This document shows positions 23,820 through 56,423 of a stretch of 64,000 bases of DNA, piece by piece (the stretch's first letter is position 1; every line of letters begins with the position of its first letter). Both the position numbers and the translations under genes were made by a program. Below the pieces are notes generated by a model, which saw only the letters and a program-made list of their open reading frames with translations, was not told the origin of the DNA and did not search any database. Location: the NCBI RefSeq assembly GCF_056746865.1, contig NZ_CM163382.1. The stretch is one strand, 5' to 3'.

Positions 23820-24755
23820 TTATTTCACTTCAACCACATTCAGTCGTAACTCATCCAACTGATTTTCATCTTCTTCAGGCTGCCAACCCGCCGGTTGTAG
23901 AGGGATCTCTTCGCGATCAAACGCCAGATCACCCCCGTTAACCACTTCAGAACCGTGGGTAATGCCTTTGAAATCGAACAGGTTGGTATCGCACAGATGC
24001 GACGGCACCACATTCTGCATCGCGCTGAACATCGTCTCGATACGCCCCGGATAACGTTTATCCCAGTCACGCAACATGTCAGCAATCACCTGACGTTGCA
24101 GGTTAGGCTGTGAACCGCACAGGTTGCACGGAATAATCGGGAACGCTTTTGCATCGGCAAAGCGCTGAATATCTTTCTCGCGGCAGTAGGCCAGAGGGCG
24201 AATCACGATATGTTTGCCATCATCGCTCATCAGTTTCGGAGGCATACCTTTCATCTTGCCGCCGTAGAACATATTTAAGAACAACGTTTGCAGGATATCG
24301 TCACGATGGTGACCCAGCGCGATCTTCGTCGCTCCCAGTTCCGTTGCGGTACGATAAAGGATACCGCGACGAAGACGAGAACACAGTGAGCAAGTGGTTT
24401 TGCCCTCCGGAATCTTCTCTTTCACGATACCGTAAGTGTTCTCTTCAACAATCTTGTACTCAACGCCCAGCTTTTCAAGATACTCGGGCAGAACGTGTTC
24501 CGGGAAGCCCGGTTGCTTTTGATCGAGGTTAACAGCCACCAGCGAAAAATTGATTGGCGCGCTTTGCTGCAAATTGCGCAGAATTTCCAGCATGGTATAG
24601 CTGTCTTTACCCCCGGAGAGGCAAACCATGATGCGATCGCCTTCTTCAATCATATTGAAGTCAGCAATGGCTTCGCCCACGTTACGACGCAGACGTTTTT
24701 GTAATTTGTTCAGGTTGTATTGTTCTTTCTTACTAATTTCTTGATTTTGCGACAT
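23820..24755 (-). CDS. ttcA: tRNA 2-thiocytidine(32) synthetase TtcA, 311 aa
   Basis: PP-loop SGGKDS and CxxC motifs; synteny. Confidence 0.92.
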
Positions 24756-24930
24756 TTAAAAGCGACTCAATTCGTTATATGGCATCAGAAGAGTATGCGT
24801 CATGCCGGAACGCCCAGCATAAGAAATCTGATATAAAAACTGTGGCGTGTATGGTACGGATTAGAGGGGAAAATGTCAGCACATTTGCGAAATGAATCAA
24901 AAAGCCCGCAGCAATGTGCGGGCGTTAGTG

Positions 24931-25446
<516 letters not shown>

Positions 25447-32791: not shown

Positions 32792-35431
32792 ATGCTGGGT
32801 AAATATAAAGCCGTTCTCGCGCTGTTATTACTGATTATTCTTGTGCCGTTGACGCTGCTGATGACGCTCGGCTTGTGGGTTCCCACGCTGGCGGGCATCT
32901 GGCTACCGCTCGGGACACGTATTGCATTAGATGAAAGCCCACGCATTACGCGTAAAGGTTTAATCATCCCCGATCTCCGTTATCTGGTGGGAGATTGTCA
33001 GCTTGCGCATATCACCAACGCCAGCCTTTCACATCCCAGCCGCTGGTTATTGAACGTCGGTACGGTAGAACTTGATTCTGCTTGTCTGGCGAAATTGCCG
33101 CAGACGGAGCAATCGCCAGCTGCTCCAAAAACCCTCGCGCAGTGGCAGGCCATGTTGCCTAACACCTGGATCAATATCGATAAACTGATTTTTTCTCCCT
33201 GGCAGGAATGGCAGGGAAAACTCTCTCTCGCATTAACCTCCGATATCCAGCAACTGCGTTATCAGGGCGAAAAAGTTAAATTTCAAGGCCAGCTGAAAGG
33301 GCAACAACTTACAGTCAGCGAACTGGATGTCGTCGCGTTTGAAAATCAGCCGCCGGTTAAACTGGTGGGGGAATTTACTATGCCGCTAGTGCCGGATGGA
33401 CTTCCTGTAAGTGGTCATGCTACTGCGACGTTAAACTTGCCGCAGGAGCCTTCACTGGTGGATGCCGAGCTGGACTGGCAGGAAAATAGCGGGCAATTGA
33501 TTGTGCTGGCACGGGATAATGGCGATCCGTTGCTCGATCTGCCGTGGCAAATTACTCGCCAACAATTGACTGTAAGCGATGGTCGCTGGAGCTGGCCGTA
33601 TGCAGGTTTTCCTTTGAGTGGCAGACTGGGTGTCAAAGTCGACAACTGGCAGGCAGGGCTCGAGAACGCTCTGGTCAGCGGACGACTGAGTGTGCTGACC
33701 CAGGGGCAAGCGGGTAAGGGCAACGCGGTGCTTAATTTTGGCCCTGGAAAATTAAGCATGGATAACAGCCAGCTGCCTTTGCAGCTGACCGGTGAAGCGA
33801 AACAGGCGGATCTCATTTTATATGCCCGCTTACCTGCGCAGCTAAGCGGAAGTCTGACTGACCCAACGCTGGCCTTTGAGCCAGGCGCGTTATTACGTTC
33901 GAAGGGAAGAGTCATCGATTCGCTGGACATCGATGAAATCCGCTGGCCTTTAGCGGGTGTAAAAGTCACCCAACGTGGTGTTGACGGACGTTTGCAGGCC
34001 ATTTTGCAGGCGCATGAAAATGAACTGGGCGATTTCGTGCTGCATATGGATGGGCTGGCGAATGATTTTCTCCCTGACGCTGGCCGCTGGCAGTGGCGCT
34101 ACTGGGGAAAAGGGAGTTTTACACCGATGAATGCCACCTGGGATGTTGCAGGAAAAGGTGAGTGGCATGACAGCACGATTACGCTGACCGATCTCTCCAC
34201 CGGTTTCGACCAGTTACAATACGGTACGATGACGGTAGAAAAGCCGCGATTAATTCTCGACAAGCCCGTCGTCTGGGTACGTGACGCACAGCATCCCTCC
34301 TTTAGCGGCGCGCTGTCACTGGACGCCGGGCAAACGCTGTTCACTGGCGGCAGTGTGTTACCGCCATCAACCTTAAAATTTAGCGTCGATGGACGCGATC
34401 CGACGTATTTCCTATATAAAGGCGATTTACATGCTGGTGAGATTGGCCCGGTTCGGGTAAATGGTCGCTGGGACGGTATTCGTCTGCGCGGTAACGCCTG
34501 GTGGCCTAAACAATCACTGACCGTATTCCAGCCGCTGGTGCCACCCGACTGGAAGATGAACTTACGCGATGGCGAACTGTATGCTCAGGTCGCATTTTCT
34601 GCTGCGCCTGAACAAGGATTCCGCGCGGGAGGGCACGGTGTGTTGAAAGGCGGTAGTGCCTGGATGCCAGATAATCAGGTTAACGGTGTCGATTTTGTCC
34701 TGCCTTTCCGTTTTGCCGATGGAGCCTGGCATCTGGGGACTCGCGGCCCCGTTACGTTGCGAATTGCCGAAGTGATTAATCTGGTGACAGCGAAAAATAT
34801 TACGGCTGATTTGCAAGGGCGCTATCCGTGGACAGAAGAAGAACCATTGTTGTTGACTGATGTTAGCGTCGATGTGTTAGGCGGTAACGTGCTGATGAAA
34901 CAATTACGTATGCCGCAACATGACCCGGCGCTGTTGCGGCTGAATAATCTCTCATCCAGCGAACTGGTTAGCGCCGTCAATCCGAAACAATTCGCCATGT
35001 CCGGGGCATTTAGTGGTGCATTGCCGTTATGGCTAAACAACGAAAAATGGATAGTGAAAGATGGCTGGCTGGCAAATAGCGGGCCAATGACCTTGCGGCT
35101 GGATAAAGACACCGCAGATGCGGTGGTGAAAGGCAATATGACTGCGGGTTCAGCAATTAACTGGTTGCGCTATATGGAAATTAGCCGTTCATCGACAAAT
35201 ATTAATTTAGATAATCTCGGTTTATTAACCATGCAGGCCAACATTACAGGTACCAGTCGCGTTGATGGTAAAAGCGGTACGGTAAACCTTAATTACCATC
35301 ATGAAGAGAATATTTTTACGCTGTGGCGCAGTTTACGCTTTGGCGATAATCTCCAGGCATGGTTGGAGCAGAACGCACGTCTGCCGGGAAATGACTGTCC
35401 GCAAGGAAAAGAGTGTGAGGAAAAACAATGA
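32792..35431 (+). CDS. ydbH: AsmA-like (TamB/YhdP paralogue) envelope protein YdbH, 879 aa
   Basis: N-terminal TM anchor followed by long beta-rich repeat region; stop overlaps ynbE start (ATGA). Confidence 0.88.
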   Translation: MLGKYKAVLALLLLIILVPLTLLMTLGLWVPTLAGIWLPLGTRIALDESPRITRKGLIIPDLRYLVGDCQLAHITNASLSHPSRWLLNVGTVELDSACLAKLPQTEQSPAAPKTLAQWQAMLPNTWINIDKLIFSPWQEWQGKLSLALTSDIQQLRYQGEKVKFQGQLKGQQLTVSELDVVAFENQPPVKLVGEFTMPLVPDGLPVSGHATATLNLPQEPSLVDAELDWQENSGQLIVLARDNGDPLLDLPWQITRQQLTVSDGRWSWPYAGFPLSGRLGVKVDNWQAGLENALVSGRLSVLTQGQAGKGNAVLNFGPGKLSMDNSQLPLQLTGEAKQADLILYARLPAQLSGSLTDPTLAFEPGALLRSKGRVIDSLDIDEIRWPLAGVKVTQRGVDGRLQAILQAHENELGDFVLHMDGLANDFLPDAGRWQWRYWGKGSFTPMNATWDVAGKGEWHDSTITLTDLSTGFDQLQYGTMTVEKPRLILDKPVVWVRDAQHPSFSGALSLDAGQTLFTGGSVLPPSTLKFSVDGRDPTYFLYKGDLHAGEIGPVRVNGRWDGIRLRGNAWWPKQSLTVFQPLVPPDWKMNLRDGELYAQVAFSAAPEQGFRAGGHGVLKGGSAWMPDNQVNGVDFVLPFRFADGAWHLGTRGPVTLRIAEVINLVTAKNITADLQGRYPWTEEEPLLLTDVSVDVLGGNVLMKQLRMPQHDPALLRLNNLSSSELVSAVNPKQFAMSGAFSGALPLWLNNEKWIVKDGWLANSGPMTLRLDKDTADAVVKGNMTAGSAINWLRYMEISRSSTNINLDNLGLLTMQANITGTSRVDGKSGTVNLNYHHEENIFTLWRSLRFGDNLQAWLEQNARLPGNDCPQGKECEEKQ

Positions 35432-35613
35432 AAATTTTACTGGCTGCGTTGACGTCATCTTTTATGCTGGTTGGCTGTACGCCTCGCATTGAAGTCGCTG
35501 CACCTAAGGAACCGATCACTATCAATATGAACGTTAAAATTGAGCATGAGATCATCATCAAGGCAGACAAAGATGTCGAAGAGCTGCTTGAGACTCGTAG
35601 CGATCTTTTCTGA
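35428..35613 (+). CDS. ynbE: Small lipoprotein YnbE, 61 aa
   Basis: lipobox MLVGC; translationally coupled to ydbH. Confidence 0.8.
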   Translation: MKILLAALTSSFMLVGCTPRIEVAAPKEPITINMNVKIEHEIIIKADKDVEELLETRSDLF

Positions 35614-35617
35614 GGCG

Positions 35618-35944
35618 ATGATGAAGAAAACATTACTTCTTTGTGCGTTTCTTGTTGGGCTGGTAAGCAGCAATGTAATGGCATTGACTCTGGATGAAGC
35701 CAGAACTCAGGGGCGGGTAGGTGAAACATTTTATGGTTATCTGGTTGCGCTGAAAACAGATGCTGAAACGCTGGAATTAGTAAAAGATATTAATGAAGCT
35801 CGTAATCTGAGTTACCAACAATTGGCAAAGCAAAATAATGTATCCACTGATGAGATAGCAAAATTGGCAGGGCAAAAAATGGTTGCTCGCGCGAAGCCGG
35901 GAGAATATGTGCAGGGGATTAATGGAAAATGGCTGCAAAAATAA
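35618..35944 (+). CDS. ydbL: Periplasmic protein YdbL (DUF1318), 108 aa
   Basis: ORF 35540..35944; start set to internal Met (MMKKTLLLCAFLVGLVSSNVMA signal peptide) for 108 aa. Confidence 0.8.
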   Translation: MMKKTLLLCAFLVGLVSSNVMALTLDEARTQGRVGETFYGYLVALKTDAETLELVKDINEARNLSYQQLAKQNNVSTDEIAKLAGQKMVARAKPGEYVQGINGKWLQK

Positions 35945-36369
35945 TTTCATATCCATATCCATATTCATTATGTTGCGCCATTTTGTGAATATTTAAGGGA
36001 AAATAAGTTCTGGACTAAGGCGATTTTTATTTGCATCTATTGAATTGTTATAAGTCCGATATAGGGGAGTGTCTATTTTATTTTTGATGGTTTTTTATGT
36101 GTAATTATAATTGTAAGAAATGTTATATTATTTAGTATTTACTGGGTGTATTGTTTTTTAATGCCTTAACCTCTTATTAAATATCATTTAAGTTGAATTG
36201 ACTTCAACGGATAGTATAAATTATTAGAACATCACATATTTTTGATTGGTTCTTTATTTATATTTCTTTCGTGAATATAAACACCAATCATGGTCTTGCG
36301 TTCCGTCAAAAAGGCCCGCTTTTATTTTTGTCGACTGGCGTGCAACGCTCTATTTCTAAGGAAATATAA

Positions 36370-39300
36370 ATGCAAAGGAAAAAATTGTTGTCTGTGTGTG
36401 TGGCGATGGCATTGAGCGGTCAGACATGGGCAACTGATACATCGATCCTGGATATAACTGATGACACCCGGAAATCCAGCAAGATCACATGTCCGGCGAA
36501 TATTCATTCTATTAGCAAAGAGCAGTTAGCTAAATTACCATCAGAATGTCGGGATTCTGATGACAGCGCCGTAATGAGCTGGACTGCAGCTGGCCTGGTT
36601 GCAGTCGTTACAGGAGCCGCGGTGATGGCGCTTAATGATGGTGATCATCATGACAGTTCAGAACCAGATGACGGTGGTGATACACCTGTTCCACCAGATG
36701 ACGGTGGTGATACACCTGTTCCACCAGATGACGGTGGTGATACACCTGTTCCTCCAGATGACGGTGGCGATACACCAGTTCCACCAGACGATGGTGGCGA
36801 TACACCAGTTCCACCAGACGACGGTGGTGATACACCTGTTCCTCCAGATGACGGTGGCGACGTCACTCCACCAAAAGAGCCCAAAATCTTCAATAACAGT
36901 GTCACATTCGACGAAGACAAAGGCACGCTGCAAATTCGCAATGCCACCTTTACCTACAGCAAAAACAGTGATGGAAGTTACACCCTGACGGCTGAAGATG
37001 GCCGAACCTCTATTGTGCAGGGCTGGGATGTCGACACCGATGCCAATACGGTAGAAATTACCGGCGTGAATAACCTTGGCGGTATGACGTGGTGTTACGG
37101 TAAAGACGGCATTATCTATATCACCAAAACCGTCGGCGCAACGGTGGATGACCCCGCGAACAGCAACGTATTTAACCTCAGCGATGCGGTGCTCACCGAC
37201 CAGGGCGGTAATGCCGCGCTGAATGGCGCGACGGTGATTGAAATAAACGGCAGCAGGATCGCCCTTAATAACGACGGTGATATTTCTGCTACGGGAAAAG
37301 ATTCTGTGGTTGTGGCGATAACCGGAAACGATATTACCGTTAACAATAACGGCCATATGGTTGTCGATGGCGGCACAGCGGGCGTGGTTAACGGCGATCG
37401 TGCAATCCTGAATAACCGCGGTGATGCAGTGATCACTAACGGCGGCACGGGTGTCATTGTGACGGGTGACAACGCGGTTATCAACAACATGGGGCAAAGC
37501 GATATTGATGGCGACAACTCGGTATCGGTAAAAGTTGCAGGAAACGCAACCAGAATCAGAATGGAAGGCGGGATCAATGTCAGCGGTGGCGCGCATGGCA
37601 TTGATGCCACCGGTGATAATAACGAAGTCAGCAACAAGGGCAACATTTCGGTGGTGGATGCGCATTCCACGGGCGTGCTGCTGAACGGCGATCGCGCGTC
37701 ATTCATTAATATGGGTGATATTAACGTTAGCGGAGGTGCAGCGGACGATCACTCTAATGGTGTGCAGATCAACGGCGATAACAGTACCTTTATCAACGTT
37801 GGAGATTTAAATGCCGACGACAGGGCGACCGGGGTGAAAATTAACGGTGACGCCAGCGACATTGCCCTGGCCGGGGCGATGCATGTCGGGGATTTTTCCA
37901 CCGGGCTGGAGGTGATGGGTAAAAACAATGATCTGTCGTTGTCCACCAATATGATGGATGTCACCGGGAAACAGTCCACCGGGGTGACCATTACAGGTGA
38001 TGATAATACCATTGATATCACCGGTGATATGGTCGTTGATCAAAACTCTGTCGGGGCGAAAATTGTCGGCGATCGCGTTTCGTTGCAACAGAAAGGTGAT
38101 ATTACCGTTAACGGTGCGGGGCACGGCGTTGAAGTCAGCGGTAGTAAGACGACAATCAATAATCAGGGCAAACTGACCGTAAAAGATCAAGACTCAATCG
38201 GTATCGTTATCACCGGAGATGACGCGCAATTTACTACCGTGGGTGAGATTGATGTCTCGCTGAACGGTACGGGTGTTGCGATCAGCGGCGATCGTGAACA
38301 AGTGAATTTGAGCGGTGATATAAATGTCATTCAGGAGCGTGACGGCAGCGGTACTTTCCAGGGCGGAACGGGCATCAGCATAATGAGCAACGACAGCAGT
38401 ATGCTGTTGACGGGAAACATTAATGTGACGTCCAGTATGGGGGACCAACCGTCCACCTCACCCCAGTCGTTAACCGGCGTTACCATCGAGGGGGAAAACA
38501 ATACTGTCGATCTGGAAGGCGACATCAATATTACTGTCGATTCGGATTACCTGGGGGATGAAAACAGTCTTTACGGCGTGGTTGTTTTGGGTACAAACAA
38601 CACCATCAATCTCGATGGTGGTATCAATATCTCTGGTGATAGTGGTGGACATACTATCAAAGGTGTGCAGGTAACAGGAAATAATACCGTCAATATAAGT
38701 GGTCATTCCGTAATGAATACCCGACAGATATTGGGATCCTTCTCTCTGATTTCGGTGGCTGATGGCGGGAATGTCATATTTGATGAAAACGCGATAACCG
38801 AGATTCAGAGTTCAGTGAGAGATAGTGACTATCTTTTTTTCGATGCATCGTTAATTGTTGCTACGGGAAACCAGTCTGTTATTCAGAACAACGGCATTAT
38901 TAATACAACCGATGCTCAAGAATTAATGATGGCGAATTCGGGGGCGCAAGTTGTCAATGCCGGGGTGATTAATATCAGGCCAGATGCTGAATCACACACT
39001 TTCTTTGCTGGAATGATGGCAAGAAGCGATGACTCGCAGGCAAAAAATGCCTCCGGAGGAACAATCAATCTGACATCCATTACCCGGCCTTTTAGCAGCG
39101 GAGGATTTAACGAGCGCCCGATCAAATGGTATCACAACACGGGTTATGCCTTGTTGGCCAGTAATTACGGATCGGTAATCAATGAAACAGGAGCAACCAT
39201 TAATTTGCATGGTGCAGGAACCTATGGTGTTTCCGCTTCAAAAGGAACGGCGACCAATGCGGGCGAGATAAATGTCGACGGCTTTGTTCCAATAGTAGAT

Positions 39301-42189
39301 GAAAACGGTAATATTATTGATGAAACTTACTGGCAGACCAATTCCGTATATCTGATGGGGGGCGGGATGTTGGCAGGTTCAACGGATACCGGCGACGGTG
39401 ATGCTAAAGCGGTGAATACCGGTATCATCAACGTTAAGAATGAAGGCTTCGGCATGCTGGCGATGAACGGTGGGACCGTTGTAAACCAAGGGACAATCAA
39501 TCTCACCGCCGATGAGGGCGTGACGAAGCAGCAAGATAACCAACTGTTCGCGATGGGAGCCATTCAGGGTGGTCTGGCGATTAATGACCAGGATGGGGTT
39601 ATTAATATTAACACTGATATTGGCCAGGCGTTTTATAAAGATGGCACCGGCACCATTCTCAACTATGGAAAAATTAATCTTTTCGGTAATCCAATGGATG
39701 AAAGTGATTCCCACATTGGCGTTACGCCGGATGACAAAGATATTCTCAGTGAGCTGTCTGGCAGCGGCGAGAGCATCAGTAAAACTACAACTAGCGACGG
39801 TTTTATCGCAGTTAATAACCTGGCAAACTATGGCGACGAAACGCTTAACGGCGACGTTATAGCAAATGGCTGGATATTCAACCAACCTGATGCCAGCCTA
39901 ACAATCAACGGCGAACTGAGCGTAAACCAGGGGTTGGAAAACAGTGGTCACCTGGATGTTGACAGCATTAACAGCAAAACCACGATATATAACCGTGAAA
40001 CAGGGAGCATAACAACCGATCTGCTGACGTTGAATGGCGCGGTTTCCTTCTTTAATGAAGGCGAATTTAATGGTTCAATTACCGGAGACAGCTACCAACA
40101 GAATGTGGTGAATACCGATGAAATGACGGTGACCGAAGATGGCCACTCACTCGTCAACGGAAGTTTCCTGTTCTTCAATGAGGCTGGCGCGACCCTGACA
40201 AATAGCGGTAATGCGGTAACGGGCGGGGAAAACGCGATTATTCATGTAACCAGAACCAGTGATTCTGTTTCGCAGGTTAACCGTGGCACCATCACGGCCA
40301 CAAATGGCTATAGCGCAATCAAAACTGAAAATACTGGCTCGAACAGTAACGGGAAATGGATTTGGAATACGGAAACAGGAGTGATAAATGGTATTAATCC
40401 TGCTGCACCGTTGGTTGATTTAGGACGAGGTTATAACTTTGCTAACGCTGGCGTTATTAATGTTCAGGGCGATAATGCAGTGGGCATCAGTGGCGGCACA
40501 ACCAGCTATGTTGTCCAGTTGGTGAACAGTGGCATCATTAATGTGGGTACTGAGCAGGGGCAACTGGATGGAACCAACGGCGAAGGTTTAATTGGTATTA
40601 AGGGCAATGGTCGGGAAACGACAATTAATAACACGCAAACGGGTGTGATTAATGTCTATGCCGATAACTCCTGGGCGTTTGGTGGGCAAACGAAAGCCAT
40701 CATTAACAACGGTGAAATTAATCTGCTGTGTGACACCGGATGCGATATTTATGCTCCAGGAACGACGGGGGCGCAAAACGATCACAACGGTACTGCGGAT
40801 ATTACCGTACCAGAGGCATCAACCACGCCGCCACAAGGTAATGTTCCAACGCCACCTGTCGATTCAAATGCACCGCAACTGCTGAGCAACTATACCATTG
40901 GTACCAACAGCGACGGGAGTTCGGGTACGCTCAGCGCGAATAACCTGGTTATTGGCGACAACGTGAGTGTTAACGCCGGGTTTAGTGCAGGAACTGCGGA
41001 CACCACCGTTGTCGTTAACGATGTATTCAAAGGCGAAAACATCAGCGGTGTGGATAACATCGTTTCCTCTACTGTTGTCTGGAACGCTAAAGGCAGCACC
41101 GATGCCAGCGGCAACGTTGACGTCACTATGAGCAAAAACGCTTATACCGATGTGGCGACCGATGCTTCGGTGAATGACGTCGCGAAAGCACTGGATGCGG
41201 GTTACACCAACAACGAGCTGTATACCAGCCTGAACGTCGGCACGACTGCCGAACTGAACAGTGCCCTGAAACAGGTCAGCGGTAGCCAGGCGACCACGGT
41301 ATTCCGCGAAGCGCGCGTGCTAAGCAACCGCTTTAGCATGCTGGCGGATGCCGCACCGAAAGTGGGTAACGGTCTGGCGTTCAACGTTGTTGCGAAAGGC
41401 GATCCGCGCGCGGAGCTGGGGAACAATACCGAGTACGACATGCTGGCATTGCGTAAAACCATCGACCTGAGCGAAAGCCAGACGATGAGTCTGGAGTACG
41501 GTATCGCGCGCCTCGATGGCGACGGTGCGCAGAAAGCGGGTGATAATGGCGTTACAGGCGGTTATAGCCAGTTCTTTGGCCTGAAACATCAGATGTCCTT
41601 CGACAACGGCATGAACTGGAATAACGCATTGCGTTATGACGTTCACAACCTTGACAGCAGCCGTTCGATTGCATTTAGCAACACAAACAAAACGGCTGAT
41701 ACCGACGTGAAGCAGCAGTACCTGGAGTTCCGCAGCGAAGGGGCGAAGACTTTCGAACCGAGCGAAGGACTGAAGGTTACGCCATATGCGGGTGTTAAAC
41801 TGCGTCACACACTGGAAGGTGGCTATCAAGAGCGCAATGCCGGAGACTTTAACCTGAATATGAACAGTGGCAGCGAAACGGCGGTGGACAGCATCGTCGG
41901 GTTGAAACTGGATTACGCAGGTAAAGACGGCTGGAGCGCTAGCGCTACGCTGGAAGGCGGGCCGAACCTGAGCTACGCGAAGAGCCAGCGTACGGCAAGC
42001 CTGGCAGGCGCAGGCAGTCAGCACTTTAATGTCGATGACGGTCAGAAGGGCGGCGGCATCAACAGCCTGGCAAGCGTCGGCGTGAAGTACAGCAGCAAAG
42101 AAAGTTCGCTGAATCTGGATGCTTACCACTGGAAAGAGGACGGCATCAGCGATAAAGGCGTGATGCTGAACTTCAAGAAAACGTTCTAA
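36370..42189 (+). CDS. ydbA: Large autotransporter (type Va) adhesin-like protein, 1939 aa, uninterrupted
   Basis: signal peptide, six full DDGGDTPVPP decapeptide repeats, long Gly/Asn/Thr-rich beta-helix-like passenger, C-terminal approx 280-aa beta-barrel ending ...VMLNFKKTF. Confidence 0.85.
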   Translation: MQRKKLLSVCVAMALSGQTWATDTSILDITDDTRKSSKITCPANIHSISKEQLAKLPSECRDSDDSAVMSWTAAGLVAVVTGAAVMALNDGDHHDSSEPDDGGDTPVPPDDGGDTPVPPDDGGDTPVPPDDGGDTPVPPDDGGDTPVPPDDGGDTPVPPDDGGDVTPPKEPKIFNNSVTFDEDKGTLQIRNATFTYSKNSDGSYTLTAEDGRTSIVQGWDVDTDANTVEITGVNNLGGMTWCYGKDGIIYITKTVGATVDDPANSNVFNLSDAVLTDQGGNAALNGATVIEINGSRIALNNDGDISATGKDSVVVAITGNDITVNNNGHMVVDGGTAGVVNGDRAILNNRGDAVITNGGTGVIVTGDNAVINNMGQSDIDGDNSVSVKVAGNATRIRMEGGINVSGGAHGIDATGDNNEVSNKGNISVVDAHSTGVLLNGDRASFINMGDINVSGGAADDHSNGVQINGDNSTFINVGDLNADDRATGVKINGDASDIALAGAMHVGDFSTGLEVMGKNNDLSLSTNMMDVTGKQSTGVTITGDDNTIDITGDMVVDQNSVGAKIVGDRVSLQQKGDITVNGAGHGVEVSGSKTTINNQGKLTVKDQDSIGIVITGDDAQFTTVGEIDVSLNGTGVAISGDREQVNLSGDINVIQERDGSGTFQGGTGISIMSNDSSMLLTGNINVTSSMGDQPSTSPQSLTGVTIEGENNTVDLEGDINITVDSDYLGDENSLYGVVVLGTNNTINLDGGINISGDSGGHTIKGVQVTGNNTVNISGHSVMNTRQILGSFSLISVADGGNVIFDENAITEIQSSVRDSDYLFFDASLIVATGNQSVIQNNGIINTTDAQELMMANSGAQVVNAGVINIRPDAESHTFFAGMMARSDDSQAKNASGGTINLTSITRPFSSGGFNERPIKWYHNTGYALLASNYGSVINETGATINLHGAGTYGVSASKGTATNAGEINVDGFVPIVDENGNIIDETYWQTNSVYLMGGGMLAGSTDTGDGDAKAVNTGIINVKNEGFGMLAMNGGTVVNQGTINLTADEGVTKQQDNQLFAMGAIQGGLAINDQDGVININTDIGQAFYKDGTGTILNYGKINLFGNPMDESDSHIGVTPDDKDILSELSGSGESISKTTTSDGFIAVNNLANYGDETLNGDVIANGWIFNQPDASLTINGELSVNQGLENSGHLDVDSINSKTTIYNRETGSITTDLLTLNGAVSFFNEGEFNGSITGDSYQQNVVNTDEMTVTEDGHSLVNGSFLFFNEAGATLTNSGNAVTGGENAIIHVTRTSDSVSQVNRGTITATNGYSAIKTENTGSNSNGKWIWNTETGVINGINPAAPLVDLGRGYNFANAGVINVQGDNAVGISGGTTSYVVQLVNSGIINVGTEQGQLDGTNGEGLIGIKGNGRETTINNTQTGVINVYADNSWAFGGQTKAIINNGEINLLCDTGCDIYAPGTTGAQNDHNGTADITVPEASTTPPQGNVPTPPVDSNAPQLLSNYTIGTNSDGSSGTLSANNLVIGDNVSVNAGFSAGTADTTVVVNDVFKGENISGVDNIVSSTVVWNAKGSTDASGNVDVTMSKNAYTDVATDASVNDVAKALDAGYTNNELYTSLNVGTTAELNSALKQVSGSQATTVFREARVLSNRFSMLADAAPKVGNGLAFNVVAKGDPRAELGNNTEYDMLALRKTIDLSESQTMSLEYGIARLDGDGAQKAGDNGVTGGYSQFFGLKHQMSFDNGMNWNNALRYDVHNLDSSRSIAFSNTNKTADTDVKQQYLEFRSEGAKTFEPSEGLKVTPYAGVKLRHTLEGGYQERNAGDFNLNMNSGSETAVDSIVGLKLDYAGKDGWSASATLEGGPNLSYAKSQRTASLAGAGSQHFNVDDGQKGGGINSLASVGVKYSSKESSLNLDAYHWKEDGISDKGVMLNFKKTF
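36667..36870 (+). repeat. In-frame 30-bp tandem repeat array inside ydbA (six full units plus a degenerate seventh)
   Basis: gatgacggtggtgatacacctgttccacca repeated with synonymous variation; encodes DDGGDTPVPP. Confidence 0.9.
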
Positions 42190-42396: not shown

Positions 42397-43257
42397 ATGA
42401 GCAGCAATACATTTACTCTCGGTACAAAATCCGTTAACCGTCTTGGTTATGGCGCGATGCAACTGGCAGGTCCTGGGGTTTTTGGCCCCCCAAGAGATCG
42501 CCACGTCGCTATAACCGTGCTGCGTGAGGCGCTGGCATTGGGCGTCAATCACATTGATACCAGCGACTTTTATGGTCCGCACGTCACCAATCAGATTATC
42601 CGCGAAGCGCTTTATCCTTACTCTGACGACCTGACAATTGTCACTAAAATTGGTGCGCGGCGTGGAGAGGACGCATCCTGGTTGCCCGCATTTTCTCCGG
42701 CAGAGCTGCAAAAAGCGGTGCACGATAATCTACGTAATCTCGGGCTGGACGTACTGGATGTGGTTAACTTGCGCATTATGATGGGGGATGGTCATGGCCC
42801 AGCGGAAGGATCGATAGAAGCCAGCCTGACCGTGCTGGCAGAGATGCAACAACAAGGCCTGGTAAAACATATTGGCCTAAGCAACGTCACACCGACGCAG
42901 GTTGCAGAGGCGCGCAAGATTGTCGAAATCGTCTGTGTGCAGAACGAATACAACATTGCTCATCGTGCTGATGACGCAATGATTGAAGCTTTGGCTCGTG
43001 ACGGCATTGCCTACGTGCCGTTCTTTCCGCTCGGGGGCTTTACGCCGCTGCAATCTTCCACGCTTTCCGATGTTGCTGCGAGCCTGGGTGCAACACCAAT
43101 GCAGGTGGCGCTGGCGTGGCTGTTACAACGTTCACCGAATATTTTGCTGATCCCAGGGACGTCTTCTGTTGCGCATTTACGGGAGAATATGGCTGCTGAA
43201 AAATTGCATCTTTCTGAGGAAGTGTTGTCTACGTTGGATGGTATTTCGCGAGAATAA
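42397..43257 (+). CDS. ydbC: Aldo-keto reductase family oxidoreductase, 286 aa
   Basis: AKR fold motifs; synteny. Confidence 0.85.
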   Translation: MSSNTFTLGTKSVNRLGYGAMQLAGPGVFGPPRDRHVAITVLREALALGVNHIDTSDFYGPHVTNQIIREALYPYSDDLTIVTKIGARRGEDASWLPAFSPAELQKAVHDNLRNLGLDVLDVVNLRIMMGDGHGPAEGSIEASLTVLAEMQQQGLVKHIGLSNVTPTQVAEARKIVEIVCVQNEYNIAHRADDAMIEALARDGIAYVPFFPLGGFTPLQSSTLSDVAASLGATPMQVALAWLLQRSPNILLIPGTSSVAHLRENMAAEKLHLSEEVLSTLDGISRE

Positions 43258-55197: not shown

Positions 55198-55243
55198 TTA
55201 TGAATTCTGAAAAATAGCAAGGGAGATACTCCTTACGTGCTTA

Positions 55244-55543
55244 TTACAAATCTGCTTGATGAGGACGATATACTGGATACCAAATATTACTGCAACAAAG
55301 AACTTCACTGTTTTTGTCAGAAATAAAAATCGTAATTTCCATATCATCCCAACCTTTAACATCTCTGACTACCATCCATAATGGAATATCAAGGCCGTAT
55401 GATTTCATACCATCAGGAAGAAATTTAATAGCAGTGATTTTGTATGCCAGCGAGCCATTAAGATTATACTTTTTACAATATTTTTCTGCTATCGAATTCA
55501 CTTTGTTTTCAGTAAGAATAGGAGCGATTATTTTATTATTCAT
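55244..55543 (-). CDS. Hypothetical small protein (99 aa), AT-rich, translationally coupled to the upstream SUKH-like gene
   Basis: start ATG overlaps upstream stop (ATGA); GGAG 4 nt upstream; translation MNNKIIAPILTENKVNSIAEKYCKKYNLNGSLAYKITAIKFLPDGMKSYGLDIP...; no family recognised. Confidence 0.5.
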   Translation of the reverse strand: MNNKIIAPILTENKVNSIAEKYCKKYNLNGSLAYKITAIKFLPDGMKSYGLDIPLWMVVRDVKGWDDMEITIFISDKNSEVLCCSNIWYPVYRPHQADL

Positions 55544-56034
55544 GAGACTCCACATTGCTGTAAATAAAGAATAATTTCAACTTGCATTTCCACTAACTCA
55601 CCAAAATTTTCAAAGCATAACTCACAAGGGAAATCACCGACATCATCGGAAAATATACCAAAATCATGAATGAGAATATAAATTTTTAGGCTGTTGCGGT
55701 CAAGAAAAGCTACACTCCCATCGCCAAAACTGCCAACAGGAAAAGGATCAATGTTGTTCAATAATGGATATTCTTTTTTATAATCTTCCCATTGTTGCAA
55801 AAATAGAGGGTAATATCTGTCCAGATCCTTCAAAGTATAAATTTGAGGATCGACAAAATGACATGCGCCAAAATGAGACAATAACTGCCGATAGTCTTTT
55901 GGAATATGTGTTGCGTATTTATCCTCAAATAAAAGAAGGTTATCTTCAGTTTCCGGAGCGGTTACGCAACCTGTAAGTCCTGTTGTTTTTACGGCAGGCC
56001 AGGCGGTTTCTAAAATTTGAAACATTTTTTCCAT
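55540..56034 (-). CDS. SUKH/Smi1-Knr4-like putative immunity protein (164 aa)
   Basis: motifs resembling SUKH-1: ...HIPKDYRQLLSHFGACHF... and ...PFPVGSFGDGSVAFLDRNSLKIYILIHD...; AT-rich relative to flanks. Confidence 0.55.
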   Translation of the reverse strand: MEKMFQILETAWPAVKTTGLTGCVTAPETEDNLLLFEDKYATHIPKDYRQLLSHFGACHFVDPQIYTLKDLDRYYPLFLQQWEDYKKEYPLLNNIDPFPVGSFGDGSVAFLDRNSLKIYILIHDFGIFSDDVGDFPCELCFENFGELVEMQVEIILYLQQCGVS

Positions 56035-56423
56035 GTATGTTTCTCGACATATAGTATTATGTTGATGAATAAAAAGGACAATTTGTCTCCTTAGACGGAT
56101 AGTAGTTTATAGCTCAGGCCAGATATTATTCAATTTAAATTTAAGGATTTCCCATTAATGAGCGTGTTGCAAATGTTCCCATTGATTGAGAAATATAAGA
56201 ATGAATATTTCATAAATATCACACCAACTTATCTGTCACTTAAAAATGATAGAACATTATGTTATTGATGTTTTATCAACAGTTTCTCCGCAAATACAGT
56301 ATGACTAAAACCAGTGTCTGGTTCGCGATGGCGCGATAGAAAAAGGATCATCTTCCTTTCAGAGTGCTCCGCTTCTCACTATTATCTCACGCAGTATTCT
56401 TAAAGGAACGATAAGGAGGAACC

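Follow-up and report, generated by a model that had tools for sequence, protein, structure and literature searches.

The phenylethylamine and phenylacetate catabolic genes of Escherichia coli (fea, tynA and paa) lie in a region already known to vary. In K-12 MG1655 the gene order is ydbL, feaR, feaB, tynA, paaZ, paaA-K, paaX, paaY, ynbG and ydbA, and the distance from ydbL to ydbA is 19,185 bp; the initial annotation of the DNA studied here gave this order, and rightly so. The paa locus has been described as a region of genomic heterogeneity located between ydbH/ynbE/ydbL and ynbC/ynbD/azoR, where the carriage of paa and of ydbA varies, ydbA is not always intact and internal deletions recur (Goldstone et al. 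2016, PMC4951805). None of the O157:H7 isolates tested had tynA, which was also missing from most UPEC and neonatal-meningitis isolates, and CFT073 lacks 33 kb of DNA around this gene (Elovaara et al. 2015, PMC4640556). The polymorphism described below is real but already published, and represents ordinary variation of the known accessory genome. The detail added here, namely a segment replacement, an ST69-specific spacer and a mosaic ydbL, is a modest refinement and not a new kind of feature.

Outside E. coli, the deepest arrangement is ldhA-ydbH-ynbE-ydbL-azoR, as found in Photorhabdus, Xenorhabdus, Hafnia and Mangrovibacter, which identifies the ydbL-azoR interval as an old insertion hotspot. 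In Enterobacter, Lelliottia, Trabulsiella, Pseudocitrobacter, Yokenella, Cedecea and some Citrobacter, feaR-feaB-tynA-paaZ-paaA directly follow ydbL, and the presence of the cluster next to ydbL across these genera implies that the ydbL-feaR linkage predates Escherichia. The non-coli Escherichia sampled are all without the cluster. In E. albertii and E. whittamii, ydbL is followed by pdxI and in Escherichia sp. E1V33 by an autotransporter gene. E. whittamii also retains, between ydbL and pdxI, a 91-bp autotransporter remnant (L071, 12098-12188; 81% identity) covering the ribosome-binding site and signal-peptide region, and this remnant implies that the autotransporter gene was deleted in this species. 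Another occupant of the hotspot is seen in Escherichia sp. MOD1-EC7003 (L011, 5365-7390), where ydbL is followed by what appear on inspection to be transposase-like fragments; the same interval includes an uncharacterised ORF of 313 aa with a signal-like N-terminus.

The interval between ydbL and pdxI

The window, that is the whole 64-kb stretch of DNA analysed here, shows about 4 mismatches over 64 kb (99.99% identity) with its closest match, E. coli 118UI (NZ_CP032515.1, 1597904-1661903), a member of ST69, phylogroup D (PMC8900328). RefSeq gives the 118UI gene order as ydbH-ynbE-ydbL, autotransporter, pdxI-ydbD-ynbABCD-azoR-hrpA. The site is the same as in K-12, with the core flanks ldhA-ydbH-ynbE-ydbL to the left and pdxI-ydbD-ynbABCD-azoR-hrpA to the right in K-12 order. 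On the left, and all on the plus strand, are ydbH (32792-35431), whose nucleotide identity to K-12 is 96-100% in 200-nt windows, the core lipoprotein gene ynbE (35428-35613) and a mosaic allele of ydbL (35621-35944; Pfam DUF1318, E=1e-29), recognised by allele comparison; the first core gene on the right is pdxI (ydbC; 42397-43257, plus strand). The ORFs of ydbH, ynbE and pdxI agree with the RefSeq annotation of 118UI. Two further features of the window lie away from this locus. At 23820-25365 ttcA is directly followed by uspF, and the Rac prophage, which adjoins ttcA in K-12, is missing here. An accessory insert of 1.1 kb between hrpA and ydcF (55214-56350), missing from E2348/69, carries a gene of the SMI1/KNR4 family (immunity-protein-like) together with a small hypothetical gene.

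Between the end of the ydbL stop codon at 35944 and the start of the next ORF at 36370 lie 425 bp (35945-36369) of non-coding DNA with 28.9% GC, exactly as the initial annotation had it when it reported some 425 bp of AT-rich DNA between ydbL and the gene in the ydbA position. No Rfam family was found in this spacer (a chance match with E=0.6 fell inside ydbL), its predicted folding shows no excess of RNA structure (z=-0.11) and none of its small ORFs is credible; by these three measures it is neither a structured non-coding RNA nor a small-protein gene. Nor does the junction have the attributes of a mobile element: it includes no IS or integrase genes, no tRNA site and no meaningful flanking direct repeats. 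One good sigma-70-like match, TTGATG-16-TATAAT, is located at 36084-36111, but a promoter and terminator scan of the spacer gave match counts no higher than in shuffled sequence. The spacer is presumed to be the promoter/regulatory region of the adjacent gene: judged from its sequence, it would be an ordinary AT-rich upstream region driving expression of the autotransporter.

The autotransporter gene itself (36370-42189, plus strand) is an intact ORF of 5820 bp encoding 1939 aa, with pdxI and ydbD downstream. RefSeq labels the 118UI product an 'autotransporter outer membrane beta-barrel domain-containing protein'. As in the BigA (Salmonella)/YdbA family, the product scores above threshold for both Pfam BigA_N (E=1e-25; 90.1 bits against a cut-off of 24.5) and BigA_beta (E=5e-25; 87.5 bits against 24.3), shares a homologous N-terminal signal peptide with K-12 YdbA and ends in a conserved C-terminal translocator. 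It differs from BigA proper in reaching only 2060.9 bits with the NCBIfam auto_BigA model (NF033178), below the 3400-bit cut-off, so that equivalence to BigA is not supported, and in its passenger, a distinct allele with a PPDDGGDTPV array. This array is encoded by a 30-bp tandem repeat present in 6.5 copies (36663-36857, plus strand; detected with TRF and confirmed by translation). Its copy number varies among otherwise identical ST69-type genomes, in which the length of the matched span lies between 3080 and 3200 nt and changes by 30 nt at a time, and the gene of strain M12, at 5910 bp instead of 5820 bp, has three extra repeat units.

The protein is about 42% identical in amino acids to a reconstructed K-12 YdbA and 86-87% identical to the phylogroup F alleles. 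The 3' part of the gene (41074-42189, plus strand), which encodes the end of BigA_beta and the C-terminal translocator, is 91-99% identical to K-12 ydbA; nucleotide identity at this level extends from 41094 to the stop codon and is followed by pdxI, as expected for an orthologous position. The gene is the positional counterpart of ydbA by sequence comparison, but only its last 1.1 kb is conserved, so the name 'ydbA' given in the initial annotation holds for the position and the C-terminal end and needs qualifying for a protein with so low an overall identity. In K-12, ydbA is a pseudogene split by IS2 and IS30, unlike the intact gene of the window. The corresponding autotransporters of UPEC132 (L006, 9375-17102) and ZH063 (L007, 10078-18681) are 2575 aa and 2867 aa in length; their RefSeq name, 'EntS/YbdA MFS transporter', looks like a confusion of ydbA with ybdA.

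Distribution of the catabolic cluster and of the cluster-less haplotypes

The initial annotation had also stated that the catabolic cluster is absent from this locus. A tblastn search of the 64-kb window with the 18 K-12 cluster proteins returned no counterpart, the sole match being the paralogue aldA, and low-stringency blastn with the 19-kb K-12 cluster DNA found no remnant in the window. Compared with K-12, the window is thus without all 18 cluster genes and has an unrelated spacer and a mosaic ydbL. Since the missing cluster is a fact of gene order, the question of chance does not apply. We give practically no weight to an artefact of assembly or of the window by mis-join, and rejected it, because the identical junction recurs in 141 genomes that were each completed independently.

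The annotation had further proposed a search for homologues beyond the locus, and four gene fragments searched for in 60 listed genomes of this haplotype returned none. A chimeric query made of 2.8 kb of window-specific DNA and 2.1 kb of tynA, feaB, paaA and paaK fragments was used in megablast. The window haplotype was present at 100% identity in all 60 listed records, among them 'O15:H18 strain ST69', with one matching place each, and in none of these 60 genomes do the tynA, feaB, paaA and paaK fragments match a second chromosomal place. The single matching place per chromosome implies that the cluster is not elsewhere on these chromosomes at the sensitivity of megablast with four gene fragments, which a paa cluster of <85% identity would escape. 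The genome of 118UI lies outside the 60 listed records.

The population was represented by 5426 complete E. coli genomes, a collection that does not include UMN026 (NC_011751.1), another phylogroup D reference. At least 80% of the K-12 cluster is found in one place in 3097 of them (57%), about 1600 have partial matches only and 731 have no match to the K-12 cluster region. The window (ST69) type of spacer occurs in 141 genomes, the O157/E type, in which the autotransporter is split, in 375, and the phylogroup F type in 47; together these three types account for 563 of the 731 genomes without a match, and about 170 remain unclassified. With the cluster in 3097/5426 genomes, the present junction in 141 and ST69/phylogroup D as the closest match, the lineage-linked presence/absence polymorphism put forward in the initial annotation is borne out.

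The window spacer is present in exactly 141/5426 complete genomes, in one copy each and always with at least 99% identity. No weaker or more distant relative was detected in the collection beyond these 141 genomes, and there is no real match in plasmids or phages. The spacer is a clean single-copy marker for the haplotype. One candidate plasmid match, the only one in PLSDB, was rejected: NZ_CP141089.1 is a 4.9-Mb record that is also in the chromosome collection. This E. coli sequence, from strain KE47, is listed as a 'plasmid' in PLSDB. When compared with the corresponding spacers of K-12, UPEC132, ZH063, O157, E1V33, E. whittamii, E. albertii, IAI39 and SMS-3-5, the window spacer gave no alignment (word size 7, E<=0.01). 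Four mutually unalignable spacer families are distinguished: those of the window, of phylogroup F, of O157/E1V33/E. whittamii and of K-12/UPEC132/ZH063.

There are at least five cluster-less forms other than that of the window: the O157/E type, the F type, two B2 deletion scars and a clean junction. The phylogroup F strains IAI39 and SMS-3-5 and O157:H7/E resemble the window in that ydbL is followed by 413-457 bp and a BigA/YdbA-type autotransporter gene, without fea, tynA or paa. Both differ from it by an unalignable spacer, the F allele also by the first ~470 nt of the gene and the O157 gene by being split in two and sharing 55-68% amino acid identity. The B2-type scars of E2348/69, ZH063 and UPEC132 lack the same cluster at the same locus, as does CFT073 with its reported 33-kb gap, and likewise occur in ExPEC lineages. 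Unlike the window, these scars have definable breakpoints and retain feaR/paaX/paaY stubs or K-12-like flanking spacers: the B2 scar of E2348/69 reads feaR'-'paaX-paaY and the deletion scar of ZH063 reads feaR'-'paaY, while the clean junction of UPEC132 keeps the first 64 bp downstream of ydbL, fused to DNA that begins 13 bp past the paaY stop codon. A further combination is seen in SCPM-O-B-8794 (labelled E. coli), in which a non-K-12 ydbL allele occurs together with the cluster.

Breakpoints and origin of the window haplotype

The difference from K-12 begins within ydbL. The first 150 nt of the gene (35621-35770) are 98% identical to K-12, whereas the last 174 nt (35771-35944) show 76% identity to K-12 and 84-89% to the alleles of O157, Escherichia sp. 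E1V33, E. albertii and E. whittamii. Within E. coli, ydbL alleles diverge by up to ~25% in nucleotide sequence, far above the neighbouring core genes. BLAST alignments of the window to K-12, O157:H7 and E2348/69 all stop at the ydbL stop codon (35942-35947), and those to K-12 and O157 restart only at 41074, about 4.7 kb inside the downstream gene. The right boundary is abrupt, identity to K-12 rising from ~50% to 91-99% at 41074-41094. BLAST breakpoints and sliding-window identity therefore delimit a divergent haplotype block of 5.3 kb (35771-41073, plus strand), which takes the place of ~26.9 kb of K-12 that include the 3' part of ydbL, the fea/tynA/paa cluster, ynbG, the ydbA passenger and two IS elements. 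The block is itself composite. From ~36842 the passenger is 93-94% identical in nucleotides to phylogroup F (IAI39, SMS-3-5); this level of identity does not extend to the spacer or to the first ~470 nt of the autotransporter gene, and the 3' end of the gene is nearer to K-12 than to F.

Comparison of the locus with K-12 and other phylogroups, along the lines that the initial annotation recommended, thus upholds the missing cluster but not a simple gain or loss: relative to K-12 a segment is replaced, with one end in mid-ydbL and the other within the autotransporter gene, which is neither a simple indel nor a clean 19-kb deletion. The locus is a recombination mosaic with an alternative cluster-less haplotype.

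A rival explanation is that an illegitimate or repeat-mediated deletion removed the 19-kb cluster, and nothing else, from a K-12-like ancestor of ST69 and left the spacer behind. Such events do occur, since independent cluster deletions are known in E2348/69, ZH063 and UPEC132 and partial ones in mastitis strains (PMC4951805). These true deletions, once verified, all keep K-12-like flanking spacer DNA or gene stubs, while the window, F and O157 types keep none; in the window, moreover, the departure from K-12 extends to the 3' part of ydbL and to 4.7 kb of the downstream gene, which a deletion does not account for. A search of the junction for feaR, paaX and paaY remnants and for IS sequences found none and, with no K-12-like spacer there either, a simple deletion derivative of the K-12-type locus is essentially excluded. 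We judge an in-situ deletion of this kind to be very improbable.

The initial annotation had suggested that the junction sequence may reveal how the cluster was gained or lost, with short direct repeats as one thing to look for. This is not supported. The direct and inverted repeats present are AT-rich matches of 10-18 nt, such as occur by chance, and the junction has no remnant, no IS and no similarity to the K-12 spacer. It is without a scar, so that loss, replacement or a cluster never gained cannot be read from the junction itself.

Both boundaries are located in conserved sequence, a signature of allelic exchange by homologous recombination. In such an exchange, neither a transposition nor a simple deletion, 5.3 kb of sequence, unrelated or very divergent, would have taken the place of ~27 kb of K-12 type, with crossover points in mid-ydbL and where the conserved C-terminal part of the autotransporter gene begins. 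We regard it as probable that the 425 bp are an ordinary regulatory region upstream of the autotransporter gene and that they belong to a cluster-less form of the ydbL-ydbA locus, a variable site, in the ST69/phylogroup D lineage.

Whether the ancestors of ST69 ever had the cluster is a separate question. It is conceivable that the ydbL-autotransporter arrangement is original in Escherichia and was kept by ST69, F and E, the cluster having been inserted later in the ancestor of A/B1/C (and B2). The non-coli Escherichia sampled (E. albertii, E. whittamii and E1V33) are without the cluster and the 3' half of the window ydbL groups with their alleles, as an ancestral empty site would predict. This is difficult to reconcile with a ydbL-feaR linkage that is found in other genera and is older than Escherichia, with B2 deletion scars that place the cluster in early-branching E. 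coli, and with the non-K-12 ydbL allele that is joined to the cluster in SCPM-O-B-8794; we consider an empty site retained since then to be a possible but rather doubtful explanation. We lean towards replacement because the deletion scars in B2 and the linkage seen in other genera point to an early presence of the cluster in E. coli. On balance, and with only slight preference, the cluster-less state of ST69 may have arisen by recombination with an old, partly unsampled Escherichia haplotype. The best relatives of the ydbL 3' half are only 84-89% identical and the donor of this half and of the spacer is unsampled, so recombination is deduced from mosaic patterns and not from an identified source.

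Exchange of this kind probably reaches across species borders. The ydbL gene and spacer of O157:H7 (L003, 12218-12954) are 97.6-99% identical to those of E1V33 (L013, 11390-12119), which belongs to a different GTDB species, and this identity points to a likely inter-species recombination of the haplotype. Boundaries in conserved sequence, internal mosaicism and a haplotype common to several species together argue for homologous recombination that swaps whole haplotypes. A broader reading, which we offer tentatively and think unlikely as a whole, is that the interval from mid-ydbL to the translocator is a long-lived trans-species polymorphism of Escherichia. Homologous recombination would have shuffled several passenger alleles with promoter spacers of at least four unrelated kinds, the cluster being present in some combinations and missing in others; the ST69 spacer and the 5' end of the gene would come from an Escherichia lineage not yet sampled, and diversifying selection acting on the surface adhesin of a pandemic ExPEC clone would perhaps maintain the polymorphism.

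Significance for ST69-type strains

These results leave current understanding unchanged, the locus being a known variable region. E. coli pathotypes differ in their use of 2-phenylethylamine and phenylacetate, a trait that has been discussed in connection with gut, udder and meat niches. From its gene content, the ST69-type lineage would have no TynA/FeaB/Paa route and would be unable to use either compound through it. In place of the cluster, ST69-type strains carry an intact, lineage-specific surface autotransporter of the BigA/YdbA type with a variable repeat array.
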